A stretch of 26,765 nt of DNA from a virus. Position numbers and translations under genes: made by a program. Positions 5,239-26,765 of this stretch are shown here, piece by piece. Location of the stretch: IMG/VR virus record IMGVR_UViG_3300028591_000065; one strand, given 5' to 3'. The notes beneath the pieces are model-generated. The model searched no databases. It saw only the letters and a program-made list of their open reading frames with translations, and was not told where the DNA came from. Within the stretch, counting starts at the first letter, position 1. The number at the start of each line of letters is the position of its first letter.

Positions 5239-6447
5239 ATGGAACGAAGAAGTTTATTCAGTAGAATATTTGGGACTGATAATAGTAGTGAAATACCACA
5301 AACTGCAACTGAAGTGAAAGTGCTAGACGATAGCAAAGCAGTATTTACACCATATAAAGGAGATTTTCATGACGATATAGATATTCGTGCATGTGTAGAC
5401 GCAATAGCTCGTAATGGTGCTAAAATGCACCCTAGACACATACGAAACTTTAATGGCAAAATGGAAGACTTAAAAGATAACCTTTATAAGTTGTTAGCAA
5501 AGCAACCAAACGAGATACAGGACGCATATAAGTTTTATTATCAAGTAATTACAAACCTAGAATTATATAACGATAGTTTTGTATATATTCAAAGAGATAA
5601 AGACTTAAAAGTGACTGGTTTATACCCTTTAGATTTTACTGAAGGTAAACTTTATGAGTTTCAAGGTAAGTTATGGGTAAAGTTTAAGTTTGGTAGAAGT
5701 AAAGAAAGATTTGTACCTTATGACAGTTGCATACACTTAACTAGGTTCGTTGGAAAAGACGGACTATTTGGTGGTTCTACTATACCAATAATAAAGACTT
5801 TATCTATAAAACACGTAATAGATGAGGGAATAATAAATGCAATAAAGACTACACAACACATTAAAGGTATTATTAAATCTACTAAAGCTATGTTAAAACC
5901 AGAAGACGTTAAGAAAATGAGAGACCAATTCGTTGCTGATTTTATTAAATATGGAGATAAAAGTGGTATTGGTGGACTAGACGCAACAACTGATTTTACA
6001 CCAGTTAAGTTAGATCCACAAACTGCAAGTGATAGTCAAATTAAGATATTTGACAATAAAATACTTTCATACTTTGGAGTAAATGAGAATATTATTCAGT
6101 CAAAATATAGTGAAGATGAGTGGAACGCATTTTATGAAAGTGTACTAGAACCAATAGGACTACAAATGAGTTTAGAGTTCACAAATAAAATATTTACACC
6201 AACTGAAAAGAACTTTGGTAATGAAATATTATTTGAAAGTAATAGACTACAATATGCAAGTAATACTACAAAGATAAATCTATTAAGATATGCAAATAAC
6301 ATAATGACTATTAACGAGTTAAGAGAAATATTTAACCTTGCACCAGTTGAAGACGGAGACGTACGTATGCAAGACCTTAACCATGTTAGTAGTGATATAG
6401 CAAATGATTATCAATTAGGAGGAGAAGAAGGAAATGAAGGAAATTAG
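5239..6447 (+). CDS. Portal protein (HK97-family-like)
   Basis: About 402 aa directly after terL. ATG 5239 follows GGGGAGG. The track's TTG 5224 start would overlap the terL stop, so it is rejected. Confidence 0.85.
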   Translation: MERRSLFSRIFGTDNSSEIPQTATEVKVLDDSKAVFTPYKGDFHDDIDIRACVDAIARNGAKMHPRHIRNFNGKMEDLKDNLYKLLAKQPNEIQDAYKFYYQVITNLELYNDSFVYIQRDKDLKVTGLYPLDFTEGKLYEFQGKLWVKFKFGRSKERFVPYDSCIHLTRFVGKDGLFGGSTIPIIKTLSIKHVIDEGIINAIKTTQHIKGIIKSTKAMLKPEDVKKMRDQFVADFIKYGDKSGIGGLDATTDFTPVKLDPQTASDSQIKIFDNKILSYFGVNENIIQSKYSEDEWNAFYESVLEPIGLQMSLEFTNKIFTPTEKNFGNEILFESNRLQYASNTTKINLLRYANNIMTINELREIFNLAPVEDGDVRMQDLNHVSSDIANDYQLGGEEGNEGN

Positions 6448-7036
6448 AAAGTTAGATTTACAATTTAGAGCTGAAGATACTGAAGATAAGAAAATGGAGA
6501 TAAAAGGTTATGCAGTAGTTTTTGATAGCCCAGAAACTTACGATTATACTGAAGTTATTGATAAACACGCATTAGATGAAACTGATATGACTGACGTAGT
6601 TTTAAGATATAATCACGAAGATACATTTATGGTACTAGCAAGAACACGTAATAAGTCTTTAAATCTTAATGTAGATGATAAAGGTTTGTTTATGGAAGCA
6701 ACTTTACAAGACGATATATCACAACACAAAGATATATATAACGCAATTAAAAGTGGTTTAATTGACAAGCAAAGTTTTGCATTTACGGTTGAAGAAGATA
6801 CTTACGATTATGATACCGACACAAGAACTATTACAAAAATAGGTAAGTTGTTTGACGTATCAGTAGTGGATCAACCATTTTATAATGCTACTGACGTAAG
6901 TGTTGCTTCTTCAAATGATGACTTTTTAGAGAGAAGAAACGAATTAAGAAAAGAACACGAAGAAAAGTTAAAAGAAGAAGAAAGAAAAAATATACTACAA
7001 AAAGCAAAAGAAGAAGTATTAAAAAAATTAGGTTAA
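6434..7036 (+). CDS. Prohead protease (HK97-family-like)
   Basis: 200 aa between portal and capsid. The N-terminal segment IKGYAVVFDSPE is typical of this family. The C-terminal tail is K/E-rich. Confidence 0.8.
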   Translation: MKEIRKLDLQFRAEDTEDKKMEIKGYAVVFDSPETYDYTEVIDKHALDETDMTDVVLRYNHEDTFMVLARTRNKSLNLNVDDKGLFMEATLQDDISQHKDIYNAIKSGLIDKQSFAFTVEEDTYDYDTDTRTITKIGKLFDVSVVDQPFYNATDVSVASSNDDFLERRNELRKEHEEKLKEEERKNILQKAKEEVLKKLG

Positions 7037-7046
7037 TACAAGGGTA

Positions 7047-7076
7047 AAGACACAACTGGAATAGGGTGTCTTTTTT
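7047..7076 (+). terminator. Intrinsic terminator between the protease and capsid genes
   Basis: Stem AAGACAC (7047-7053) / GTGTCTT (7066-7072), 12-nt loop AACTGGAATAGG, T-run 7071-7076. Confidence 0.7.
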
Positions 7077-7122
7077 AGTGCTGGAATAGTGCTAGAAACT
7101 TGTTTAATAAAGACTGGAATAG
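7056..7122 (+). repeat. Three direct copies of CTGGAATAG plus an 11-nt tandem duplication
   Basis: CTGGAATAG occurs at 7056-7064 (inside the terminator loop), 7081-7089 and 7114-7122. The tandem duplication is TAGTGCTGGAA / TAGTGCTAGAA at 7076-7097. Confidence 0.85.
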
Positions 7123-7174
7123 TCGTAATGGTAGTTATACCTTAAATAGCAAAAATTAAGAAGGAGGTTTACCA

Positions 7175-8311
7175 ATGAGTAGACTTGAAGAAATTGAAGC
7201 AAGAAAACTTGAAATAAGAGAAGAACTTGAAGCAACTGAAGAAGTTGAAAAAGTTGAAGAACTTAATCAAGAAGTAGACGCTTTAAATGAAGAAGTACAA
7301 CAAATTGAAGAACATGAAGAAGAACAACAAATTGCTGAAAAAATAGAAGAAGCACCAGTTGTTCCAGAAGTTATCAAGGAGGAGAAGAAAAATATGGATA
7401 ACAAAGAATTAAGAAACACAAAAGAATACGTAGACGCATACGCTGAATACGTAAAAACTGGTAGTGATAAAGAATTAAGAGCTTTATATACTACAAACGC
7501 AACTGAAGTATCAGGCTCAGTTGAAGTACCACAAGTAGTTGAAGACATTGTAAGAACTGCTTGGCAAAGAGAAGACTTAATGCAATATGTTAGAACATTA
7601 AGTGTTAAAGGAAACTTAAAAGTTCAATTTGAAGTTTCATCAAGTGAAGCACAAGTACATTTAGAAGGTGCTGACGAACCAGTTAGTGAAGAAGAACTAG
7701 TATTAGGTATCGTAGAACTAAAACCAGTATCAATTAAAAAATGGATCGGTATTAGTGATGAAGTAGTAGATATGAGAGGAGAAGAATTCTTACGTTATAT
7801 CTATGACGAATTAACTTATAGAATTGCAAAAAAATGTGCTGATACATTAGTAGGTGCTATTGCTGGTTTACCACAAACTGCAACTGCTTCTAGTCCTTCA
7901 GCAAATAAACTTACTTTAGCACCAGCAGTAGGAACTATTGCAAATGCTATAGCTAATTTAAGTGATGAAGCAAATAACCCAGTAATTATTATGAATAAAT
8001 TAACTTATGGAAAATTTAAAGAAGTTGCTTATGCAAATGGTTATTCAGTAGATCCATTTGAAGGTTTAAGAGTTATCTTCAATAACACATTACCAGCATA
8101 CGATAGTGCTTCTTCTGGAAACGTTTATGCTATCGTTGGAGATTTAGGTTTTGGTGCAGTTGCAAACTTCCCAAACGGAGAAGGTGTTGAAATCAAATAT
8201 GATGAAACAACTTTAATGACTGACGATATTGTACGTATTTTAGGACGTAGATTTGTTGGTATGGGTGTTGTAGCTGATAAAGCATTTACTTTAATAGCAA
8301 AACCACAATAA
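7175..8311 (+). CDS. Major capsid protein (HK97 fold) with an N-terminal acidic coiled-coil delta/scaffold domain
   Basis: 378 aa with the strong RBS AAGAAGGAGG. The E-rich N-terminal ~70 aa are followed by a capsid-like body. Position after the protease is canonical. Confidence 0.85.
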   Translation: MSRLEEIEARKLEIREELEATEEVEKVEELNQEVDALNEEVQQIEEHEEEQQIAEKIEEAPVVPEVIKEEKKNMDNKELRNTKEYVDAYAEYVKTGSDKELRALYTTNATEVSGSVEVPQVVEDIVRTAWQREDLMQYVRTLSVKGNLKVQFEVSSSEAQVHLEGADEPVSEEELVLGIVELKPVSIKKWIGISDEVVDMRGEEFLRYIYDELTYRIAKKCADTLVGAIAGLPQTATASSPSANKLTLAPAVGTIANAIANLSDEANNPVIIMNKLTYGKFKEVAYANGYSVDPFEGLRVIFNNTLPAYDSASSGNVYAIVGDLGFGAVANFPNGEGVEIKYDETTLMTDDIVRILGRRFVGMGVVADKAFTLIAKPQ

Positions 8312-8900: not shown

Positions 8901-9268
8901 TGGGTTCAATATTAGACGTTAGTAAAATGCTAGACAATTATTCAACTGCGATTCAAGACGAAATAGAACGTGTAATATTCGAGAATTGTGATAAAGCAAA
9001 AACTGATTTACAAAACGAAAGAAGCACGTATCAAGTTAGAACTGGTAAATATAATAAAGGGTGGAAAGTTAAAAAAACCAAAAATAGAAAATATGTTGAA
9101 GGAGTTGTATATAATACGCAATACCAATTAACACATTTACTAGAAAAAGGGCATGTCACTAGAAATGGTGGTAAAACTAGAGCTTTCCCACATATAGAAC
9201 CAGTAAACGATAGAACACAAAAATTAGTTGTTGAAGAAATTGAGAGAGCAATAGGAGGTATACAATGA
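8900..9268 (+). CDS. HK97 gp10-like tail-component protein
   Basis: 122 aa. The motif LLEKGHVTRNGGKTRAFPHI resembles the gp10 family. ATGA-type coupling with neighbours. Confidence 0.6.
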   Translation: MGSILDVSKMLDNYSTAIQDEIERVIFENCDKAKTDLQNERSTYQVRTGKYNKGWKVKKTKNRKYVEGVVYNTQYQLTHLLEKGHVTRNGGKTRAFPHIEPVNDRTQKLVVEEIERAIGGIQ

Positions 9269-9579
9269 CTTATAAACAAGTATTTGATATGTTAAGCACA
9301 TTAAAAATACCAGTTGCTTACGACCATTTCCCAACGAATAAACAAGTACAACCACCTTTTGTTGTATATAGAGCAAGTAGTCCAGAAACATTTAAAGCTG
9401 ACGGAATAACATACTATAGACCTTATGAGTATGAAATAGAACTTATAACGGAAACAAAAGATATATTGCTAGAACAAACTATTGAAGATTTACTAACTAC
9501 AAATAAGATACCATACGACTTGATAGATGAAGTATGGGACGAAGACGAACGTATCTATCACAACTTTTACGAAATATAG
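9265..9579 (+). CDS. Tail completion / tail terminator-like protein
   Basis: 104 aa, last gene before the major tail protein. Assigned by synteny only. Confidence 0.5.
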   Translation: MTYKQVFDMLSTLKIPVAYDHFPTNKQVQPPFVVYRASSPETFKADGITYYRPYEYEIELITETKDILLEQTIEDLLTTNKIPYDLIDEVWDEDERIYHNFYEI

Positions 9580-9589
9580 GAGGTATATA

Positions 9590-10156
9590 ATGAGTAAAGT
9601 TAAGTTTGGTTTAAAAAACGTACATATTGCTAAAATTACTTATGGAGAAAGTGGTGGACTACCAACTATTACTTATGGAACTCCATTTGCTTTACCTGGT
9701 GCAGTTAACTTAACACTAGACCCAGAAGGAGATAGTGCTGACTTCTTTGCTGATAACACTAAATATTTTAGTTCAAGTGCTAATAATGGTTATAGTGGAT
9801 CATTAGAAATGGCAAAACTTACTGAGGAGTTTAGAACTGAAATACTAGGAGAAACTACTGACACTAACGGTGCATTAGTAGAAAGCAAAGACGATACTCT
9901 AAGTGATTTTGCTTTAGGTTTTGAAGTTGACGGAGATGATAAGAATACAAGATATTGGTTCTATGCTATTACTCCTGCAAGAGCAGGCGCAGGTTCATCT
10001 ACTATTGAAACAACAAAAGAACCTATTACTGAAACAATAAATATTAGTGCTAATGCAAGAATAACTGACGGAAAAGTTAGAATATTTATGGAAGAAACAA
10101 ATACAAACACAACAGCTTTCAATGGTTTCTTCACAAGTGTATACGAAGCACAATAA
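9590..10156 (+). CDS. Major tail protein (phi13-family-like)
   Basis: ATG 9590 follows TAGGAGGTATATA. The sequence MSKVKFGLKNVHIAKIT...TYGTPFALPGAVNLTLDPEGDSADFFADN matches the pattern of this family. The track's 9527 start overlaps the upstream gene and lacks an SD. Confidence 0.8.
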   Translation: MSKVKFGLKNVHIAKITYGESGGLPTITYGTPFALPGAVNLTLDPEGDSADFFADNTKYFSSSANNGYSGSLEMAKLTEEFRTEILGETTDTNGALVESKDDTLSDFALGFEVDGDDKNTRYWFYAITPARAGAGSSTIETTKEPITETINISANARITDGKVRIFMEETNTNTTAFNGFFTSVYEAQ

Positions 10157-10158
10157 AA

Positions 10159-10214
10159 TACTACTCTCTTATGAGTAGTACAAAGAGAACTACTATATCG
10201 GTAGTTCTTTTTTT
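10159..10214 (+). terminator. Tandem hairpins; the second is an intrinsic terminator after the major tail gene
   Basis: Hairpin 1: TACTACTC (10159-10166) / GAGTAGTA (10173-10180). Hairpin 2: AGAACTAC (10186-10193) / GTAGTTCT (10201-10208), followed by T-run 10208-10214. Confidence 0.75.
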
Positions 10215-10238
10215 AGTATTCATAAAAGGAGGTTTTTT

Positions 10239-12458
10239 ATGGCAAGTTCAAGAATAAAGGGCATTACCATTGATATTGGAGGTAATACCCAAAAACTACA
10301 AGACGCATTGAAGGGAGTAGACAAGCAAATATATGGTTTAAATGCTGATTTAAAAGACTTAAATAAAGCATTGAAACTAGATCCAAACAATACGGAATTG
10401 TTAGCACAAAAGCAAGACGTATTAGCAAGGAATATAAAAGCTTCTACTGATAGACTAAATGCTTTAAAAGAAGCACAAAAGCAACTAGGTAGTTATAATT
10501 CATTAACTGAAGAACAAAAAGCTCAATATAATGCTTTAAGTGGAGAAATAGCAAAGACTGAAAAAGCATTAAAAGACATGAATAACGAACTTAAAGGGAC
10601 TGCAAAGATAGATTTAAGTGCGTTAAAGACTGGTTTAGCAAAAGTAGGAGATATTGCACTAGACGTTGGTAAAAAGTTAGCACAAGTCACAACTGCAATT
10701 AGTGGGGCATTGACTGGAGTAGTAAGTCTAGGAGTAAAGAGTTATGCAAGTTTAGAGCAAAACTTAGGTGGTATTGAAACTTTATTTGGAGATAGTGCTG
10801 ATAAAGTAGTAGAGAACGCCCGTAAAGCTTTTAAGACTGCTGGAGTAAGTGCTAATGAATATATGCAAGGTGTCACTTCATTTAGTGCTAGTTTATTACA
10901 AAGTTTAGGTGGTAATACTGATAAAGCAGCCGATATAGCCGATATGGCATTTAGAGATATGTCAGATAATGCTAATAAGTTTGGTACTGATATGTCATCA
11001 ATACAAAGTGCTTATCAAGGTTTTGCAAAACAAAACTATACACTCCTAGACAACCTTAAGCTCGGTTATGGGGGAACTAAAACCGAAATGGAAAGACTAC
11101 TTAAAGACGCTTCTAAAATAAGTGGAGTTAAGTACGATATTAAAAACCTAAGTGACGTATACGAAGCAATACATGTTATACAAGGAGAATTAAAAGTCAC
11201 TGGTACAACTGCAAAAGAAAGTGCAAGTACAATTAGTGGTTCAGTACAAACAATGAAGTCAGCTTTTGACAACTTTATTAATGGTTCTGGTGGTGCTGAA
11301 GATTTAATTGAAAGTGTTAATAATGTTTTAACAAATGTATCTAATGCAGTAATAAAAATAGCACCTAGTATTTTAAGTGGTATACCTAAATTAATATCTA
11401 GTTTATTACCACAAATAGGACAAATGATAGTAAATCTTGCACCTCAATTATTCCAGTCAGTTAGTCAAATGATAACGCAAATATTAGACATGGTAAAAGG
11501 AGACACAACTGGTTTACAAAATACAATAAGTTCATTAGTAGAAAGTATCGTGACTTTCTTTACTGAAAACTTACCAAAGATAATTGAAATAGCATTGACT
11601 ATATTAGTCACACTAACTGAAAGCATTGCTAATAATTTAGACACAATAGTACCAGCAATAGTAGACTGCGTTATAACAATAGTAAATACTTTAATTGATA
11701 ATTTAGATATGATAATAGACGCTGGTATCAAGTTAATAATTGCACTTGCTGAAAGTATAACTGATCCAAAGACATTAAAGAAATTAATAGACGCAGTACC
11801 AAAGATAATTACAACTATAGTCACAACTTTAGTAAAGAACTTTCCAAAGATAGTTTCTGCTGGAGTTCAAATTATAGGAAGTTTGGCAACTGGTTTATAT
11901 AATGCTTTTAGTATGATAAGAGATAAAGCATTTGAATTATTGAATAACTTTAAAGACTGGTTATTAGAAGGTTTATGGAAAATAAAAGACGTTGGTAAAG
12001 AATTAATAAGTGGTTTATGGAGTGGTTTAACTGAAAAGTGGGACAGCTTAAAGAATAGTGTTAAGAACTTTGGAGAAGGAGTAGTAAATAAGTTTAAAAA
12101 TGTATTTGGCATAGCTTCTCCAAGTAAAGTATTTAAAAAGGTTATAGGTACTAATTTAGCATTAGGAATAAGTGAAGGTTTTACTGAAGAAATGAATAAA
12201 GTTTCAACTGATATGACTAAGTCAATACCAGTAGACGATTTAATAGGAGAATATGATACTGCAATGCGTAGTTTAACCAGAGGAATTAATTCAAGTGTTA
12301 ACCCAACAATAAACCCAAGTATCACATACGAGCAAAATTACTCAATGATGAGTAAAGCAATGAAAGAAGCTTTAAACGATATGGTAGTAGACTTAGACGA
12401 TAGAGAAGTAGGAAGATTCGTTAGTAAAACAATAACTAACGAAGTATATGGGAGGTAG
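10239..12458 (+). CDS. Tail tape measure protein
   Basis: 739 aa. The N-terminus IKGITIDIGGNTQKLQDALKGVDKQI is typical of Firmicutes tape measure proteins. The protein is long, helical and hydrophobic. Position is canonical. Confidence 0.85.
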   Translation: MASSRIKGITIDIGGNTQKLQDALKGVDKQIYGLNADLKDLNKALKLDPNNTELLAQKQDVLARNIKASTDRLNALKEAQKQLGSYNSLTEEQKAQYNALSGEIAKTEKALKDMNNELKGTAKIDLSALKTGLAKVGDIALDVGKKLAQVTTAISGALTGVVSLGVKSYASLEQNLGGIETLFGDSADKVVENARKAFKTAGVSANEYMQGVTSFSASLLQSLGGNTDKAADIADMAFRDMSDNANKFGTDMSSIQSAYQGFAKQNYTLLDNLKLGYGGTKTEMERLLKDASKISGVKYDIKNLSDVYEAIHVIQGELKVTGTTAKESASTISGSVQTMKSAFDNFINGSGGAEDLIESVNNVLTNVSNAVIKIAPSILSGIPKLISSLLPQIGQMIVNLAPQLFQSVSQMITQILDMVKGDTTGLQNTISSLVESIVTFFTENLPKIIEIALTILVTLTESIANNLDTIVPAIVDCVITIVNTLIDNLDMIIDAGIKLIIALAESITDPKTLKKLIDAVPKIITTIVTTLVKNFPKIVSAGVQIIGSLATGLYNAFSMIRDKAFELLNNFKDWLLEGLWKIKDVGKELISGLWSGLTEKWDSLKNSVKNFGEGVVNKFKNVFGIASPSKVFKKVIGTNLALGISEGFTEEMNKVSTDMTKSIPVDDLIGEYDTAMRSLTRGINSSVNPTINPSITYEQNYSMMSKAMKEALNDMVVDLDDREVGRFVSKTITNEVYGR

Positions 12459-12461
12459 TTT

Positions 12462-15038
12462 ATGAGAAATTATGTAATAATAAATGGAGTTAATTCATTA
12501 AGTATAAAAGGTTTAGCAATAAGTAAACTACCTTCTATTTCTAAACCACCATTAAGAGTAATGACGGAAGAAATAGACGGACGAGACGGAGATATAATAA
12601 CTGAATTAGGTTATGGATCGTATGATAAAGAATTAGTCATTGGTTTATATGAAAATTATGATATAAACGAAATAATAGGTTTCTTTAATCAAGAAGGAAC
12701 TATTGTATTCAGTAATGAAGATGATAAATACTATAACTTTAAAATAATAAATCAAATAGACTATGAAGCATTAATCAAGTTTAGAACTGCAAATGTGACA
12801 TTACATTGTCAACCGTTTAAGTACCCTTTAGAAGAAGAACCTATCGAACTAATAGATACATATATAGAAGAAGAAGGGGAAGAAATAACTTTAACCCCAA
12901 CAGAAGACGCACCAATGGAGATAACATTAAAAGGAAACACTTCACAAGTAGTAATACCAGCAGAAGAAGGTTTAGAAGCTGAAGGAACAAGCATAACATT
13001 AACTGACGTAATACCAACAAAAGAGAACTATATAATACTAAAAGGAAATACATCACAAAACGGAACACCTACACCAGATAATCCAGTAAATGTTAATGTA
13101 GTAAGTGGAGATAATGAGATAGTTGTATGTGGTAAAAACTTAATTCCATTTCCTTATCAAGGTTCAACAAGAACTGATGGTTCTTTATCGTGGGTTGTAA
13201 ATGATGATGGCACTATATTAGTAAATGGCACAAACGATACAGGTTCTACTAAATATTTTAATTTACAATATAATAACGGAATTCAATTAAAAGCAGGAAC
13301 TTATACAATTTCCGTTGGTAGTACATCAAATATTAGGGCAACGGTGGCTAAATGGGGTGATAACACTAATGTAATTGCATTGTTATCACCAAATACAAGC
13401 GATACAACATTTACTCTTACTGAAGATATGATTGTCACTATTGTACTAGCAATAAATAATGGGTTAAGTGTTAATAATATTTTAGTAAAACCAATGCTAG
13501 AAAAAAATACAAGTTCAACAACATACGAACCATATACAAGAAATACATATCATATAAATTTAGGCACAATAGAACTATGTAAAATAGGAACATACCAAGA
13601 TAAACTTATTAAGTCTAATGATAAATGGTATTGGTATAGAGAAATTGGGAAAGTTGTTTTAAATGGTAGTGAGAATTGGGGCAATTTTCATATTGAAAGT
13701 TCAGGACTTGGTAGAGCAATAGTAGAAAGTACTAATGTTTATTTTGACAGCGATACACCAAGCATTTTAGCAAGTAATATGAAAGGTGTTAAATATTCAA
13801 GTTCTTGGAATAATACTTATGATTGTATAGCAAGTTATAATAATAATAGATTTATAGCATATTTAAAAAATGCAACTGATTTAACAAGTTTTAAAGCAAT
13901 TTTAAGTAATAGTAATTCAATAGTAAAATATGTACTATCAACACCTACTTATACTGAAATAACTGATACTAATTTAATAAATCAATTAAATGCTTTATAT
14001 AATGCTACTATTTATGAAACAACTAATATAAGTTCTATTCCTAACGATTTAGAACCTTTTATTGATATTAAGTACAATGTTGTCACACCTTCTCCTAGTC
14101 CTCAAAGACCGAGTGCTATTAATGTGGTTAGTGGTACTAATACTATTAAAATAGCTAATGAAGATGATACTGAAAGTCAAACTTTTAATATTAGACTTGG
14201 ATCATTGAAGTTATACAAACTAAATGACACACAAGATTATATTTATAAAAGTGCTGATAAATGGTATATAAGAAACCACGCAAAAGAAAAAACCTTTACT
14301 GGTGCTGATATTGAAGGTTGGGGTTGTTTACAAAATGGTAGAGGAGAGTGGTGTATTCTAACTACTAATATTAGAAATGAAGTAAAACAAGGTTCATCTT
14401 TAATTGCTGATATATTACCATTTTTTAGTAGTGCTATATTTGACGGACTATATAATCAAAATGCTATAACTTTAGGTGGTAAAAATATAGAGTTGATGAT
14501 AGAAGGAATAAACGATAATGATGATGAATTATTTACGGACTTCTTAGCAATACATAACTTAACTATTTTATATGAGTTAGCAACTCCTATTGATACCGAA
14601 ATAACTGACACTGATTTAATAGAAGATTTGGAAGCATTACTTGAAGCAACTTCATATAACCCAGAAACAAATATCACACAAACAAGTAATGATAAACCAT
14701 TTATTATATATGCTAAAGCATTAGAAGGTGGTTCTGGAGAAGCTGAAGTAATAAACGAAGGTAATATATACGCTAAACCTATCTTTGAAATAGAAGGTAA
14801 TGGAATAGTACAAGTTTTAATTGATAATAACGAAGTATTACAAGTTGATACTACAAACGATACAATAATAATTGATACTGAAAATATGGAAGCAATTAAT
14901 AAGAGTGATAATACATTAGCAAATAGACAAGTAATAGGAGATTATTCAAAAATAAAATTAGTTTCTGGAGAAAGTAATGTAAAACTTACTGGTAATTATA
15001 CAAAAGGAACTATTACAAAATATACGAGGTATCTATGA
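12462..15038 (+). CDS. Distal tail protein (evolved Dit) with two inserted, related modules
   Basis: 858 aa directly after the tape measure gene. Dit-like N-terminal (~120 aa) and C-terminal (~110 aa) parts flank two paralogous insertions (see findings). Confidence 0.7.
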   Translation: MRNYVIINGVNSLSIKGLAISKLPSISKPPLRVMTEEIDGRDGDIITELGYGSYDKELVIGLYENYDINEIIGFFNQEGTIVFSNEDDKYYNFKIINQIDYEALIKFRTANVTLHCQPFKYPLEEEPIELIDTYIEEEGEEITLTPTEDAPMEITLKGNTSQVVIPAEEGLEAEGTSITLTDVIPTKENYIILKGNTSQNGTPTPDNPVNVNVVSGDNEIVVCGKNLIPFPYQGSTRTDGSLSWVVNDDGTILVNGTNDTGSTKYFNLQYNNGIQLKAGTYTISVGSTSNIRATVAKWGDNTNVIALLSPNTSDTTFTLTEDMIVTIVLAINNGLSVNNILVKPMLEKNTSSTTYEPYTRNTYHINLGTIELCKIGTYQDKLIKSNDKWYWYREIGKVVLNGSENWGNFHIESSGLGRAIVESTNVYFDSDTPSILASNMKGVKYSSSWNNTYDCIASYNNNRFIAYLKNATDLTSFKAILSNSNSIVKYVLSTPTYTEITDTNLINQLNALYNATIYETTNISSIPNDLEPFIDIKYNVVTPSPSPQRPSAINVVSGTNTIKIANEDDTESQTFNIRLGSLKLYKLNDTQDYIYKSADKWYIRNHAKEKTFTGADIEGWGCLQNGRGEWCILTTNIRNEVKQGSSLIADILPFFSSAIFDGLYNQNAITLGGKNIELMIEGINDNDDELFTDFLAIHNLTILYELATPIDTEITDTDLIEDLEALLEATSYNPETNITQTSNDKPFIIYAKALEGGSGEAEVINEGNIYAKPIFEIEGNGIVQVLIDNNEVLQVDTTNDTIIIDTENMEAINKSDNTLANRQVIGDYSKIKLVSGESNVKLTGNYTKGTITKYTRYL

Positions 15039-16672
15039 TAAAATTATTTAATACTACTGATAACTTATTTAATTCAAATGGAGATAAGATAATACAACCT
15101 ACTTACGCAATGGTGCATAAAGAAGATAATGGTGCTTACTATTTAGATATAGAAGCACCTTTAATTTATGCTGATGATTTAGTAAGTAATAAAATATTAG
15201 TTGCTAATACTCCACAAGGTTATCAAGCATTTAGAATTACTAATGTAGAAAAAACACGAACTAAAATAAAATTAACTGCTTATCATATTTTTTATGATAG
15301 TGCTAATTATGTTATTGAAGATAGTTATATAGTAGAAAAAAATTGTAATTATGCTTTAGACCATTTAAACAATGCTACTGATAACCCTAGTCCATTTACA
15401 ACGTCTAGTGACGTAGGCACAATAGCTTCTTATAGGTGTGTAAGAAAATCTTTATATGAAGCTTTTCAAGTTGTATTAAAACGTTGGGGAGGACATTTAG
15501 TTAGAGATAACTTCACGATCCAAGTTAAAAATACAATAGGTGCTGACAATGGAGTAGTAGTTAGATATGGTAAAAACTTAAAAGATATATCAGCACAATA
15601 TGACTGGAACGAAGTAGTCACGAAGATATTACCAGTAGGGTATGACGGACTATTATTACCAGAGAAATATATTGAAGGAGTAAACCAATACGATATACCA
15701 TATACAAAAGTAGTAAGTTTCGACCAAAGTGAGATACAAGAAGAAGATTATGCTTCACATGATGAGTTTATAGACGCATTAATAGGAGATTTACGTACAA
15801 AAGCACAAGCATATTTAGAGTTAAACTCTATACCTCACGTAAATTACACCCTAGAAGCTAATTTAGAGCGTATAACGGACATTGGAGACATAATCGAAGT
15901 AATAGACGAAAGACTAGGAATTAGTCTTATAACGTCTCTAATTAGTTTTGATTATGACTGCATATTAGAAAAATATAGACAAGTACAATTTGGAAACTTT
16001 AAACCGACACTTGATAACTTTGTAGAACAAATAGCACAAACTACCCAAGAACAAATAAACGAGAATAATGCAACAATACAAGTTCAATTAATTCAAGGGT
16101 TAGAAGAAGCTACTGATACGATATTAGGAGTTATGGGTAATTCTTTTGTTATATATGACGGAACACAAATTATGATAGTAGATAGTTTACCAAAAGAAAC
16201 TGCTACTAATGTAATGCGTATTAATTCTGCTGGTATTGGTTTTTCAAATACTGGTATAAATGGTATTTTTAATTCTGCATGGACTATTGACGGAACTTTA
16301 AATATGCAAAATATTAATGTCATTGGTTTAACTGCTGACTTAATAAGCTCTGGTACATTAAAATTAGGTTCTAATTTAAACCAATACGGAACATTAGAAG
16401 TATATGACGAGAACAATGTTTTAATTGCTACATTAGATAAAAATGGGTTAACAAGTATTAGTGTTAATGGTGCTTATGTAAGACTTAATGCTGATGAGGG
16501 TTTGGTTGGTTATGACGCTAACGATAATAAAATATATTGGGTACAAGATAATGTATTCCACATGGCAAATGCTGAAATAGAAAACGAAATTGCTATTGCT
16601 AAAAAAATAAAATTAGTCCCAGTAGTTAAAACAGGTACTAATGGTATTGGTTTTGTTGGTATTGCTGAATAG
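15035..16672 (+). CDS. Tail-associated lysin-position protein (Tal; phage minor structural protein N-terminal region-like)
   Basis: 545 aa. The N-terminus MIKLFN...NGDKII...AMVHKEDNGAYYLDIEAP...AFRITNVEKT is typical of the prophage tail endopeptidase/Tal N-terminal domain. ATGA overlap with Dit. Confidence 0.7.
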   Translation: MIKLFNTTDNLFNSNGDKIIQPTYAMVHKEDNGAYYLDIEAPLIYADDLVSNKILVANTPQGYQAFRITNVEKTRTKIKLTAYHIFYDSANYVIEDSYIVEKNCNYALDHLNNATDNPSPFTTSSDVGTIASYRCVRKSLYEAFQVVLKRWGGHLVRDNFTIQVKNTIGADNGVVVRYGKNLKDISAQYDWNEVVTKILPVGYDGLLLPEKYIEGVNQYDIPYTKVVSFDQSEIQEEDYASHDEFIDALIGDLRTKAQAYLELNSIPHVNYTLEANLERITDIGDIIEVIDERLGISLITSLISFDYDCILEKYRQVQFGNFKPTLDNFVEQIAQTTQEQINENNATIQVQLIQGLEEATDTILGVMGNSFVIYDGTQIMIVDSLPKETATNVMRINSAGIGFSNTGINGIFNSAWTIDGTLNMQNINVIGLTADLISSGTLKLGSNLNQYGTLEVYDENNVLIATLDKNGLTSISVNGAYVRLNADEGLVGYDANDNKIYWVQDNVFHMANAEIENEIAIAKKIKLVPVVKTGTNGIGFVGIAE

Positions 16673-16682
16673 GAGGTAAATT

Positions 16683-18455
16683 ATGGCAAGTGGTTCTTTT
16701 AATTTAAGCTTAGAACACCCAAGTTCTAGCGTATCTTTTCAAGGTAAAATTGAGTGGACTAGTACCTCAAATGGTGCAGTTGCTAATTCTAGTTTAGTAG
16801 AGTGTAAAATCTATGCTAGAAAACAAGGAAGTTCAACACCTACTAGTGGAACATTTAAAGGTTCTATTACTATTGACGGAACTAAGACAACTTTTAGTCA
16901 AAGTAAGTCAGTAAGTAATTCATGGGTTTTAATCTCAACAAGTAGTAAGACAGTTTCACATAATGCTAATGGAACTAAAACTATAACTATAGCTGGAGAA
17001 GTTGGTAAGGTTTCTGGTACTACTTTAGCAAATATTAATTCAACTGGATCAAGTAGTGCTACATTAGATACAATAGCAAGAAAGATAACCATAACTGATA
17101 GTGCAATATTTAATGATGAGTATTCTTTTGGTACTAATATGTCAGCACCAGCTTACCCAAACTATACAAGTGCAAAAATATGTTTAAGTTTAGACGGAAC
17201 TAACCCACTAGATACGTGGAAAGATATAACACTAACAAATAACCACCCATATTATACGTATACAATAACTGAAAACGAACAAAATGCAATGTATACGGCA
17301 CACCCTAACGATAATTCATTTAATATCTATGTTATGGTTAGGAGTGTTTTAGGTGGTTCAACTTATACTGATAAAATACAAAAAACAATAAGTATAATAA
17401 ATGCTAACCCAGAATATGACGCAAGTACTTTAAGTGTTATTGATACTAATGCTTCAGTTGTTTCTATTACTGGAGATAATACAAAATTAGTAGGTTTAGA
17501 AAGTATACCAGAGTTAATATGGACTGCACCAACAATAAAAAAAGGTGCTAGTTTATCTTATATGTCTTTTGTATTCATTGGTGGTGTAAGAGAATCTAGT
17601 TATACAACTGACACATTAACTGGATCATATACATTTACTGAAAAACCTAGTGGAACTTTTACTATACGTTGTATTGTAGAAGATAGTAGGGGAAATAGAA
17701 CTTACTTTGATAAGACAATAAATGTAATTGAGTATAATTACCCACAAATAGGAGGTAGTCTAAAAAGAGTAAATAATTATGAAAATGAAACCAAGTTAAC
17801 CATAAATGCTTCAATAAGTTCGGTTGATAGTTTAAATAGTATTCAATTACTTCAATATAGGTATAAAAAAGACGCTACAGGGGAAAACTGGAGTGCATGG
17901 ACTAATATATCAAACGGAGTAGAAACTACACTTACATTAGACAATAATTATGGTTGGTTCTTTGAGTTTAAATGTGAAGATAAGTTTGATTATGAAACTG
18001 TTAGTGGTTATCTAAATAAAGGACTATTTGTATTATTTATAGACGTTGTTAAAAACTCAGTTGGTATTAATTGTTTCCCAGAGAAAAATAATTCTTTAGA
18101 AGTAAACGGAGTTGAAATAGCAACCGAAGAAGAAGAAATATGGAGTGGTTCGACAATACTAGACTATAACGATACTATCACATTAGATATAAGTATTAGC
18201 AAAACTCAAAGAGGTTTTGCTTTTTTATGGGAACACCAAAACGGAGAACAGCAAGTCACATACGCACCTAAAACACTTTCATATAGTGAATTAAATTACT
18301 TTTTAATTAGTGCTGGTGGCATTGGTTATAAAAGAGTAATTTTAAGTGGGCATGACACCTTAACAGGTGACGCAGTAAATGGTGGTTCTGGAACTATTGG
18401 AGGAATAACATACGATAGTTCTAAATGGTATCTTAAAAAAGTATATAGAGTATAG
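16683..18455 (+). CDS. Structural protein, receptor-binding candidate (DUF859-like N-terminus)
   Basis: 590 aa, last structural gene before the lysis genes. The S/T/N-rich beta-type sequence starts MASGSFNLSL... Confidence 0.5.
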   Translation: MASGSFNLSLEHPSSSVSFQGKIEWTSTSNGAVANSSLVECKIYARKQGSSTPTSGTFKGSITIDGTKTTFSQSKSVSNSWVLISTSSKTVSHNANGTKTITIAGEVGKVSGTTLANINSTGSSSATLDTIARKITITDSAIFNDEYSFGTNMSAPAYPNYTSAKICLSLDGTNPLDTWKDITLTNNHPYYTYTITENEQNAMYTAHPNDNSFNIYVMVRSVLGGSTYTDKIQKTISIINANPEYDASTLSVIDTNASVVSITGDNTKLVGLESIPELIWTAPTIKKGASLSYMSFVFIGGVRESSYTTDTLTGSYTFTEKPSGTFTIRCIVEDSRGNRTYFDKTINVIEYNYPQIGGSLKRVNNYENETKLTINASISSVDSLNSIQLLQYRYKKDATGENWSAWTNISNGVETTLTLDNNYGWFFEFKCEDKFDYETVSGYLNKGLFVLFIDVVKNSVGINCFPEKNNSLEVNGVEIATEEEEIWSGSTILDYNDTITLDISISKTQRGFAFLWEHQNGEQQVTYAPKTLSYSELNYFLISAGGIGYKRVILSGHDTLTGDAVNGGSGTIGGITYDSSKWYLKKVYRV

Positions 18456-18466
18456 GAGGTGGAACA

Positions 18467-18667
18467 ATGGAAACTGTAAAGAAAATTGCTAAATATGGTG
18501 TTAATATTTTAGCTATAGTAAATGCTTTATTAGTAGGTTTAGATCCAATATGGGGTATTCCTTATTGTGATAAAATAACTGCTACTATATCAGTAATAAT
18601 GGCAGTTGCTGGTACATACTTACTAGGACAAAAAGCATATAATTATTATAAAATAGAGGGTGTTTAA
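18467..18667 (+). CDS. Holin
   Basis: 66 aa with two hydrophobic segments (VNILAIVNALLVGL and ITATISVIMAVAGTYLLG). Located immediately upstream of the endolysin. Confidence 0.7.
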   Translation: METVKKIAKYGVNILAIVNALLVGLDPIWGIPYCDKITATISVIMAVAGTYLLGQKAYNYYKIEGV

Positions 18668-18669
18668 TT

Positions 18670-19353
18670 ATGGTAAAGAAATATAAATATAATTGTGATG
18701 ATAAATTATCGGCACATTTTTCAGTTCAAGACTTTAGGTGTAAATGTGGTGGTAAACATGATATTTTAATTGATACAAAATTAGTAGATTTATTAGAAGA
18801 TTTGTACTTAAAACTAGAAGCTGACGAGTTAAAAGTTTATAGTGGGTATAGGTGTAAAAAGCACGATATAGCAGTAGGTGGTTCTGGAAGTGGTTCTCAT
18901 ACTGAAGGAAAAGCTGCTGATTTTTATTGCAAGAAAGACGGAAAACGTATAAGTTCAGGTGTTGTTTGTGTGACACTTGAAAACATGAAAGACTATAAAG
19001 GTATAGGTTTTAGGTGTGGAGGGAAAAAAAATACAACAGGAGATACACACGCTGACGTAAGAAATAGACAATGGTACGGAAATGAAGCAAGTAAAACTCC
19101 AAGAAAAGCAGTCACTAAAGACTGGTATAAATACTTTGATAATGTAGAAATGAAAACACGTACAACAATGAATATACGTAGTGGTGCTGGTACTAACTAT
19201 AAAAAAGTTGGATCATTAAAAAAGGGTTCTATATTTAAAGCAACGCAATTAAAATGGAACGGGAAAGACGGTTGGTTAAAAATGGCAAAAGGTTATATAT
19301 GTTTGTGTCAAGATAAAAAATATTATTGTGATATAGAAAAGGTAGAACCATGA
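18670..19353 (+). CDS. Endolysin: zinc peptidase M15 (M15_3/YcbK-like) catalytic domain plus C-terminal SH3b domain
   Basis: Catalytic motif: FSVQDFRCKCGG...SGYRCKKHDIAVGGSGSGSHTEGKAADF...THADVR. The SH3b-like segment is MNIRSGAGTNYKKVGSLKKGSIFKA...DGWLKM. Confidence 0.85.
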   Translation: MVKKYKYNCDDKLSAHFSVQDFRCKCGGKHDILIDTKLVDLLEDLYLKLEADELKVYSGYRCKKHDIAVGGSGSGSHTEGKAADFYCKKDGKRISSGVVCVTLENMKDYKGIGFRCGGKKNTTGDTHADVRNRQWYGNEASKTPRKAVTKDWYKYFDNVEMKTRTTMNIRSGAGTNYKKVGSLKKGSIFKATQLKWNGKDGWLKMAKGYICLCQDKKYYCDIEKVEP

Positions 19354-19724
19354 AAGTAAGAGAACTAATAGATTATGTAATATTAGCAAGTGCTTTTTTA
19401 GGTGCATTATTTGGAGTAATGAAATATATAAAAGCAGGTATAAAAGAAATGCTAAAAAATGAATTCAAAGACATAACTGATAGACTAAATAAATTAGAGA
19501 ATAAAATTGACACCAACGAAGCTGATAGAATAAGGACTGAAATAGAGCATTATTATCATATATGTTTAAGTGGTGGAGAAATAGACACAAACGAAAAGAC
19601 ACATATAGATAATATATATAGAAAGTACCATAATGAATTAAAACAAAATGGAGAAATAACACACGAATATAACTACATAATAGAATATTATGAAATGCAA
19701 TTTAAAAAGACTAGTGTATGCTAG
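19350..19724 (+). CDS. Membrane-anchored coiled-coil protein, translationally coupled to the endolysin
   Basis: ATGA overlap with the endolysin stop. N-terminal TM segment LIDYVILASAFLGALFGVM, then DITDRLNKLENKID and a His/Tyr-rich C-terminus. Confidence 0.6.
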   Translation: MKVRELIDYVILASAFLGALFGVMKYIKAGIKEMLKNEFKDITDRLNKLENKIDTNEADRIRTEIEHYYHICLSGGEIDTNEKTHIDNIYRKYHNELKQNGEITHEYNYIIEYYEMQFKKTSVC

Positions 19725-26604: not shown

Positions 26605-26765
26605 CAGCAAGAGAAATGTTTATTGATGTGAATATGAAAAAAGTATATGAAGATGATAGAATTTTGCGATATGAAGATTTTCTTACTCGTGAGTTTTATG
26701 TAATATTTTATAAAAAAGAAAAAATGTTTGAAGCATTTACAAATTATGATTGTGTGATAACTATT
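26601..26765 (+). CDS. Hypothetical protein, N-terminal part of the junction-spanning ORF (continues at 2..190)
   Basis: ATG 26601 lies inside the third copy of GGAGTATAAAGTATGA. The ORF is open to the window end and in frame across the 127-bp overlap. Confidence 0.6.
   Translation, partial: MTAREMFIDVNMKKVYEDDRILRYEDFLTREFYVIFYKKEKMFEAFTNYDCVITI
26639..26765. repeat. Terminal direct repeat, identical to 1..127
   Basis: See the feature at 1..127. Confidence 0.95.

Follow-up and report, generated by a model that had tools for sequence, protein, structure and literature searches.

A Folded Leader RNA with Three Like Hairpin Loops Precedes the Capsid Gene in Low-GC Phages of Gut and Rumen

What is a terminator-like hairpin doing directly ahead of a phage capsid gene, and why does one 9-mer occur three times in and behind it? 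The question is raised by a virus genome (IMG/VR record IMGVR_UViG_3300028591_000065; hereafter the window, meaning the whole 26,765-nt stretch of DNA that was analyzed), in which the genes of TerL, portal, an S78 prohead protease, and an HK97-type major capsid protein (MCP) stand in a row and the last two are separated by a spacer of 138 nt. Bases 1–127 of the window are identical to 26639–26765. This 127-nt terminal overlap marks it as a circular assembly, and the phage genome of ~26.6 kb is probably complete. No integrase was seen among the scanned ORFs, which lie outside the tail-to-lysis stretch (9265–19724). Among ~50,700 deposited phage genomes, neither the capsid protein nor the protease–capsid DNA had any match; hence, the whole clade is known from metagenomes alone. 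The capsid start shares its reading frame with the protease gene, at a distance of 141 nt (7034–7177). A protease–capsid fusion by read-through is not indicated: more stop codons lie between the two genes, and the spacer lengths of relatives are not multiples of three.

Anatomy of the leader RNA

The 9-mer CTGGAATAG occurs as three exact copies at 7056, 7081, and 7114, all on the + strand, and the 26.7-kb window holds no further exact copy. When one mismatch at most is allowed, there are 15 matches, against 4.6 expected, and this count was reached in 0 of 100 shuffles. A preliminary description of the spacer had held that the repeats are not due to chance. The shuffles and the covariation across ~50 phages given below bear this out, and the repeats belong to a real, selected element. 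They are the tips of three hairpins (HP1, HP2, and HP3) in a folded RNA of ~130 bases ahead of the capsid gene (Table 1), and these three are the only hairpin tips with TGGAATA in the phage genome. The display of the motif in the terminator loop, as described for the first copy, was confirmed and extends to all three copies, each of which caps its own hairpin on a stem unlike the others. An enclosing stem (P1) and a fourth hairpin (HP4) also go beyond the earlier reading. P1 starts at the protease stop codon and encloses HP1 and HP2; a possible extension by GUUAA (7032–7036), which includes the stop codon, would pair with 7104–7108.

Table 1. Features of the protease–capsid region of the window
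Feature	Position	Strand	Remarks
S78 prohead protease	6434–7036		assignment confirmed
P1, 5' strand	7032–7042	+	core ACAAG 7038–7042 pairs with 7099–7103; MFE fold
HP1, terminator-like	7046–7076	+	8-bp stem, AAAGACAC 7046–7053 with GTGTCTTT 7066–7073; T-run 7071–7076
HP2	7076–7094	+	arms UAGUGC 7076–7081 and GUGCUA 7089–7094, two G–U pairs; loop UGGAAUA 7082–7088
P1, 3' strand	7099–7103	+	CUUGU; MFE fold, covariation
Linker UUUAAUAAA, single-stranded	7103–7111	+	columns invariant or nearly so in an alignment of 36 leaders
HP3	7112–7124	+	GAC / UGGAAUA / GUC
HP4	7130–7141	+	GGUA / GUUA / UACC; without YGG loop
Conserved block UUAAAUAG after HP4	7142–7149	+	UAAAGAG in other leaders (UAAAUAG/UAAAGAG)
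Shine–Dalgarno and capsid start	7162–7177	+	AGGAGG 7162–7167, ATG 7175
HK97-type MCP	7175–8311		assignment confirmed

HP1 is the terminator-like hairpin with a T6 run reported earlier. Its apical C7056–G7064 pair closes the loop UGGAAUA (7057–7063), and a simple terminator scan overlooked it because the apical part is 12 nt long. The hairpin has the form of an intrinsic terminator, in which a stable stem–loop is directly followed by a U-run. In the leaders of relatives (see below), the median energy of HP1 is −11.5 kcal/mol, and a T-run of at least five follows it in 45 of 47 (the exceptions are L016 and L081); this run is often longer than the A-run able to pair with it. L016 keeps all the hairpins and has no T-run behind HP1. 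The window has a similar terminator behind its major tail gene, with a loop that does not carry the motif. It is the second of two hairpins between the major tail and tape-measure genes (10157–10238), has a T7 run, and shares the A-run, stem, and U-run design of HP1. Neither of the two hairpins has a YGG loop.

An 11-nt tandem duplication, TAGTGCTGGAA / TAGTGCTAGAA (7076–7097), had also been described. The letters are present, but they are the two arms of HP2: AGUGCU pairs with itself via G–U wobbles, so that the arms look like a direct repeat. At the HP2 position, relatives have ordinary unrepeated arms, e.g., GUUAC/GUAAC. HP4 is represented in relatives by GGCA..UGCC or GGGA..UCCC. The linker between P1 and HP3 is, from its sequence, a candidate RNase cleavage site and resembles a −10 box too. 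Many spacers have an ATG behind P1 that might begin a leader peptide, but the window and L013 lack it (spacers were judged by eye), and this candidate was dropped.

Conservation across relatives and selection on the RNA

Searches with the capsid protein recovered 136 loci, part of them in IMG/VR and part in metagenome-assembled genomes (MAGs) of gut and rumen samples. The loci split cleanly by GC content. Those of 28–39% GC (~56 loci, with 47 distinct spacers) all have a spacer of 100–200 nt, whereas in the higher-GC relatives the protease and capsid genes abut or overlap and the element is missing. All low-GC spacers have the same order of parts, namely P1, HP1 with its T-run, HP2, UUUAAUAAA, HP3, HP4, UAAAUAG/UAAAGAG, AGGAGG, and ATG. 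Judged from the sequences, ~50 distinct relatives, all of them low-GC uncultured gut or rumen phages, keep the same layout. A covariance model built from 14 leaders, from which HP4 was left out, had exactly one match in each low-GC locus, always on the + strand and directly before the capsid gene, and none in the high-GC loci. Two weak matches off the capsid leader (L022 5633–5735 and L161 10389–10493; E values of 0.4–0.7) are probably due to chance. A second model, which was independent of the MCP, was run on 151 genomes of the order of one host-candidate bin; it gave six matches in three genomes, all directly before capsid-like genes. The matches of a loose pattern scan of IMG/VR were mostly due to chance (3 of 80 were real).

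The 50 distinct leaders were aligned by fitting to the covariance model, which favors pairing; in this alignment, 97.3% of the cells form standard pairs and compensatory changes are found in 21 of 21 modeled pairs, and a subset aligned by MAFFT only had already given the same compensations. The changes cover all five core pairs of P1, the eight of HP1, the five of HP2, and the three of HP3. When the partners were slid as a control, pairing fell to 33–59%. HP2 is the least constrained hairpin, with a loop without GG in L085 and no hairpin at all in L256. Two reduced variants of the leader were observed, L256 (G146:C6) and L002. They keep HP1 (L256 keeps HP3 as well) and lack a proper HP2 and P1. 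In the leader alignment, G–U pairs number 97 and A–C pairs five. This strong asymmetry shows that selection maintains the structure in the sense RNA and neither in the DNA nor in the opposite strand.

Two explanations of the repeats can be weighed on these data. The preliminary description had offered as an alternative that they are the scar of a small insertion; a mobile hairpin repeat is weighed with it here. Local repetition, and nothing more, speaks for either. A single copy per genome at a fixed position, covarying across ~50 phages, refutes both, and we give them practically no chance. The other explanation is an element acting at the DNA level, either a capsid promoter with TTTAAT as the −10 box or a repeated operator for the sigma-region-4-like late regulator of the phage. 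The invariant TTTAATAAA does resemble a −10 box, TTG lies 17–18 nt upstream of it in some leaders, and a terminator followed by a promoter would explain why a terminator stands ahead of an abundantly expressed gene. The −35 part, however, is weak, inconsistent, and missing in the window, and no convincing promoter was found in the spacer, in agreement with the earlier statement that it holds no clear sigma-A promoter. Protein-bound DNA palindromes show the opposite pattern to the conserved centers and freely compensating arms seen here, P1 covaries even though it spans the supposed boundary of terminator and promoter, and the ratio of G–U to A–C pairs speaks for selection on the RNA. A DNA-level element is therefore very improbable.

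Loop types and their linkage to neighboring genes

The preliminary description had proposed a search for the motif in related phages. The 9-mer itself turned out to be unconserved. Conservation is confined to Y-G-G-(A/U) on the 5' flank of each loop, a purine at the loop end, and a likeness among the loops that a given phage carries. Observed types are UGGAGA, UGGAUA, UGGACA, UGGAAUA/G, and UGGUAGAA, usually alike within one phage and different between phages. Among the 43 leaders with three such loops, the lengths are equal in 41 and the loops identical in 25, compared with 6.3 and 3.1 after shuffling, a control that ignores relatedness. The octaloop class carries GGU, not GGA, and loop position 4 is A or U.

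The history of the loops differs from that of the capsid gene. The capsid tree requires 10 or more changes of loop type, and its well-supported branches force six or seven of them. The protease tree requires six, with only one or two forced, and it unites the octaloop class in one clade. Loop type, as read from these trees, follows the protease gene, not the capsid gene. L063 and L065 illustrate this: their capsid DNA is 92–100% identical, their protease DNA only 70–90%, and their hairpins are entirely different. This contrast and the trees place a recombination boundary between the hairpins and the capsid gene, so that the leader is inherited with the protease side. The link between leader and protease may be plain linkage or a functional tie, and the concordance of loops within a phage could, on the sequence evidence, stem partly from exchange of whole leaders by recombination.

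One functional form of this tie would be a matched RNA–protein recognition pair, in which the hairpins are inherited together with a protein made by the head genes upstream (on the protease, portal, or terminase side). An unassembled head protein would bind the three loops and tune read-through into, or stability of, the capsid mRNA. We regard this as a rather improbable reading. If true, it would mean an assembly-coupled feedback comparable to the autoregulation of the P22 scaffolding protein, and even close relatives among the phages would differ in specificity type.

The opposite possibility is that the spacer is plain punctuation. HP1 would be an ordinary partial terminator, and the other hairpins would passively stabilize the 3' end upstream and the 5' end of the capsid mRNA. 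Folding or stability would account for the retention of the YGG(A/U) loops, or these would have been inherited as a block; they would have no specific partner. The terminator anatomy of HP1 in 45 of the 47 leaders agrees with this, as does the similar pair of hairpin and terminator after the major tail gene, and the movement of whole leaders by recombination can mimic a concerted change of loops. Yet the hairpins after the tail gene are the ones without YGG loops, and in the leaders the UGG start is kept in three hairpins the stems of which vary freely. In addition, at least three loop types exist, each of which had to arise in all three hairpins. P1, moreover, forms only on read-through RNA and covaries; hence, read-through RNA is under selection, and read-through transcripts matter as well as terminated ones. 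Punctuation alone is unlikely, though it retains appreciable weight.

Candidate partners and comparison with known RNA elements

A binding site for a protein or an RNA that modulates termination or capsid expression had been suggested in the preliminary description. A trans-acting binder is still the best reading of the loops, but no binder was found. Searches against Pfam and PHROGs recognized no RNA-binding domain in the scanned phage proteins, and no protein of the window tracks loop type across 10 whole genomes. The ORF at 156–455 had seemed to be associated with it, only one close relative was retrieved, and the candidate was dropped. Tracking by the host is disfavored too, since bin G156 holds phages of both loop types. 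In the host-candidate MAG G001, where CTGGAATAG was searched as had been advised, the other copies are all in coding sequence, and none is at a hairpin tip outside the capsid leaders of related phage contigs; this disposes of mimicry of a host motif. G001 (1.3 Mb) contains three related phage genomes on C34, C55/C68, and C60, with capsid identities of 56–83%. The second is one phage split over two contigs, the break being inside the leader element. In G135, a relative is integrated in a 92-kb contig (G135:C1, L302/L303; leader at 32696–32813), adjoining a large serine recombinase and flanked by TypA, SNF2-helicase, and AddB-like genes; its leader is among the six matches of the second covariance model. 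G135, a low-GC genome of 1.1 Mb, is a genuine host.

The RNA-binding protein CsrA/RsmA deserves attention as a partner. Its targets and sponges (hag, glgC, CsrB, and RsmZ) have several GGA-loop hairpins upstream of a Shine–Dalgarno sequence containing GGA, and three GGA loops plus AGGAGG are present in most leaders, i.e., those with hexa- and heptaloops. Against such a target or sponge, the octaloop class has GGU instead of GGA, and the nearest loop is ~40 nt from the Shine–Dalgarno sequence. The CsrA family (PF02599) was missing from all 10 host-candidate genomes holding these phages, including G135 with its integrated phage; the family was detected in the control genomes, and the MAGs may be incomplete. 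No CsrA homolog was found among the scanned phage proteins either. The CsrA reading is thus largely refuted and has very little probability left.

The loops may instead pair with another RNA, either the single-stranded NCCA 3' end of tRNA, as UGGN does in T-box leaders, or a host small RNA, U-turn loops serving for fast recognition. The loops with their closing pyrimidine (C/U-U-G-G) fit the YUNR U-turn motif of antisense-RNA recognition loops, and A or U at loop position 4 is as expected if the tRNA discriminator base were paired. A complementary loop was found at no common place in 10 phage genomes, however, and the reverse complement of the loop did not recur there in loops. The sole complementary 9-mer of the window, a near-complement at 1887–1895, is hidden within a long helix. 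A contact of no more than four base pairs would be weak. With T-box leaders only the UGGN tetranucleotide is shared; that class, which has a stem I with a specifier loop and a T-box sequence in an antiterminator bulge, gave no Rfam match. Pairing with an RNA is improbable on this evidence.

Searches of the window and 10 relatives against Rfam 15 gave no family at gathering scores or at permissive E values, the only matches being chance ones to snoRNA and miRNA families. The nearest described architecture is TwoAYGGAY (RF01731), in which two successive YGGA-loop hairpins stand on a common basal stem, as HP1 and HP2 stand on P1. Variants of TwoAYGGAY with additional YGGA-loop hairpins have been described (preprint 10.64898/2026.09.22.753630, section 8). 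The RF01731 model had no match at E values up to 10 in the window region and five genomes, nor at E values up to 1 in ten loci. The loops of the capsid leaders are UGGAGA, UGGAAUA, or UGGUAGAA and share only YGGA with that family, in another register, with YGG directly at the 5' side of the loop. In the capsid leaders, moreover, the first hairpin is terminator-like, two more (HP3 and HP4) stand behind the basal stem, and the position ahead of a phage capsid gene is fixed, whereas TwoAYGGAY is multi-copy in Pseudomonas genomes. We know of no function assigned to TwoAYGGAY.

Two further systems show parallels of arrangement. In lambdoid nut sites, boxB hairpins are bound by N proteins and act on transcription termination. 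There, too, related phages have different loops on unconstrained stems. The capsid leader differs in having three hairpins, the first itself a terminator, and in its position in the middle of a late operon, and neither a boxA nor an N-like protein was found; no N-like antiterminator was recognizable by Pfam or PHROGs, searches that short arginine-rich peptides would escape. In Bacillus subtilis cggR–gapA, which is cut by RNase Y, and in 5' stem–loop stabilizers, a structured spacer within an operon likewise precedes the gene needed most, with an AU-rich single strand beside a hairpin. Such elements are without repeated sequence-specific loops, and the cleavage site in the capsid leader is only a candidate.

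The leader is apparently an unnamed RNA family, with no Rfam 15 match and no paper found that describes the element. A large IMG/VR screen (PMC10690425) listed candidate structured RNAs that lie ahead of major capsid genes, for which no structure, name, or function was given, and these may include it. New here are stem P1, the strand asymmetry, the terminator statistics, the loop classes with their linkage to the protease gene, the absence of CsrA in a confirmed host, and the architectural parallel to TwoAYGGAY.

Proposed role of the leader in capsid expression

Here, we propose that the spacer is a cis-acting leader of the capsid mRNA, combining a partial terminator with docking loops for one trans-acting factor, an explanation to which we give an even chance; that the leader RNA sets how much capsid message is made is probable. 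The evidence counted for it comprises the three exact copies at the tips of hairpins with unlike stems, the common layout of the low-GC relatives, the matches of both covariance models ahead of capsid genes, the covariation, the G–U to A–C asymmetry, the T-run behind HP1, the likeness of the loops within a phage, and the rarity of the motif at other hairpin tips. HP1 would stop part of the transcription entering from the terminase–portal–protease genes, and the read-through transcripts would fold into the full leader structure. The three like loops would then dock one multivalent trans-acting factor, most likely a protein, which may be encoded by the host or by the head-gene module of the phage. 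Its binding would set the amount of capsid message made or surviving. Possible routes are a changed read-through at HP1, a cleavage in the AU-rich linker that leaves HP3 and HP4 as a protective 5' end, or both. HP3 lies ~40 nt upstream of the Shine–Dalgarno sequence, and simple occlusion of the ribosome site is therefore unlikely. A terminator ahead of the most abundant structural gene is counter-intuitive and stands against the proposal, as do the negative search for a binder or for a window protein that tracks loop type, the bin with phages of both loop types, and the possible exchange of whole leaders.

How tailed phages obtain very unequal amounts of their head proteins from one late transcript is little understood beyond a few model phages. 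The leader, with its three-way junction, terminator, and three like loops, lies at the point where capsid expression separates from protease expression, and it recurs throughout a large group of uncultured phages, from gut and rumen, whose bacterial hosts have small, low-GC genomes. If the loops are passive, the element would still be useful as a marker and as a compact natural terminator–leader cassette. The loop types look like specificity classes that accompany the upstream gene, and they may thus offer a handle for finding a new RNA-binding regulator.
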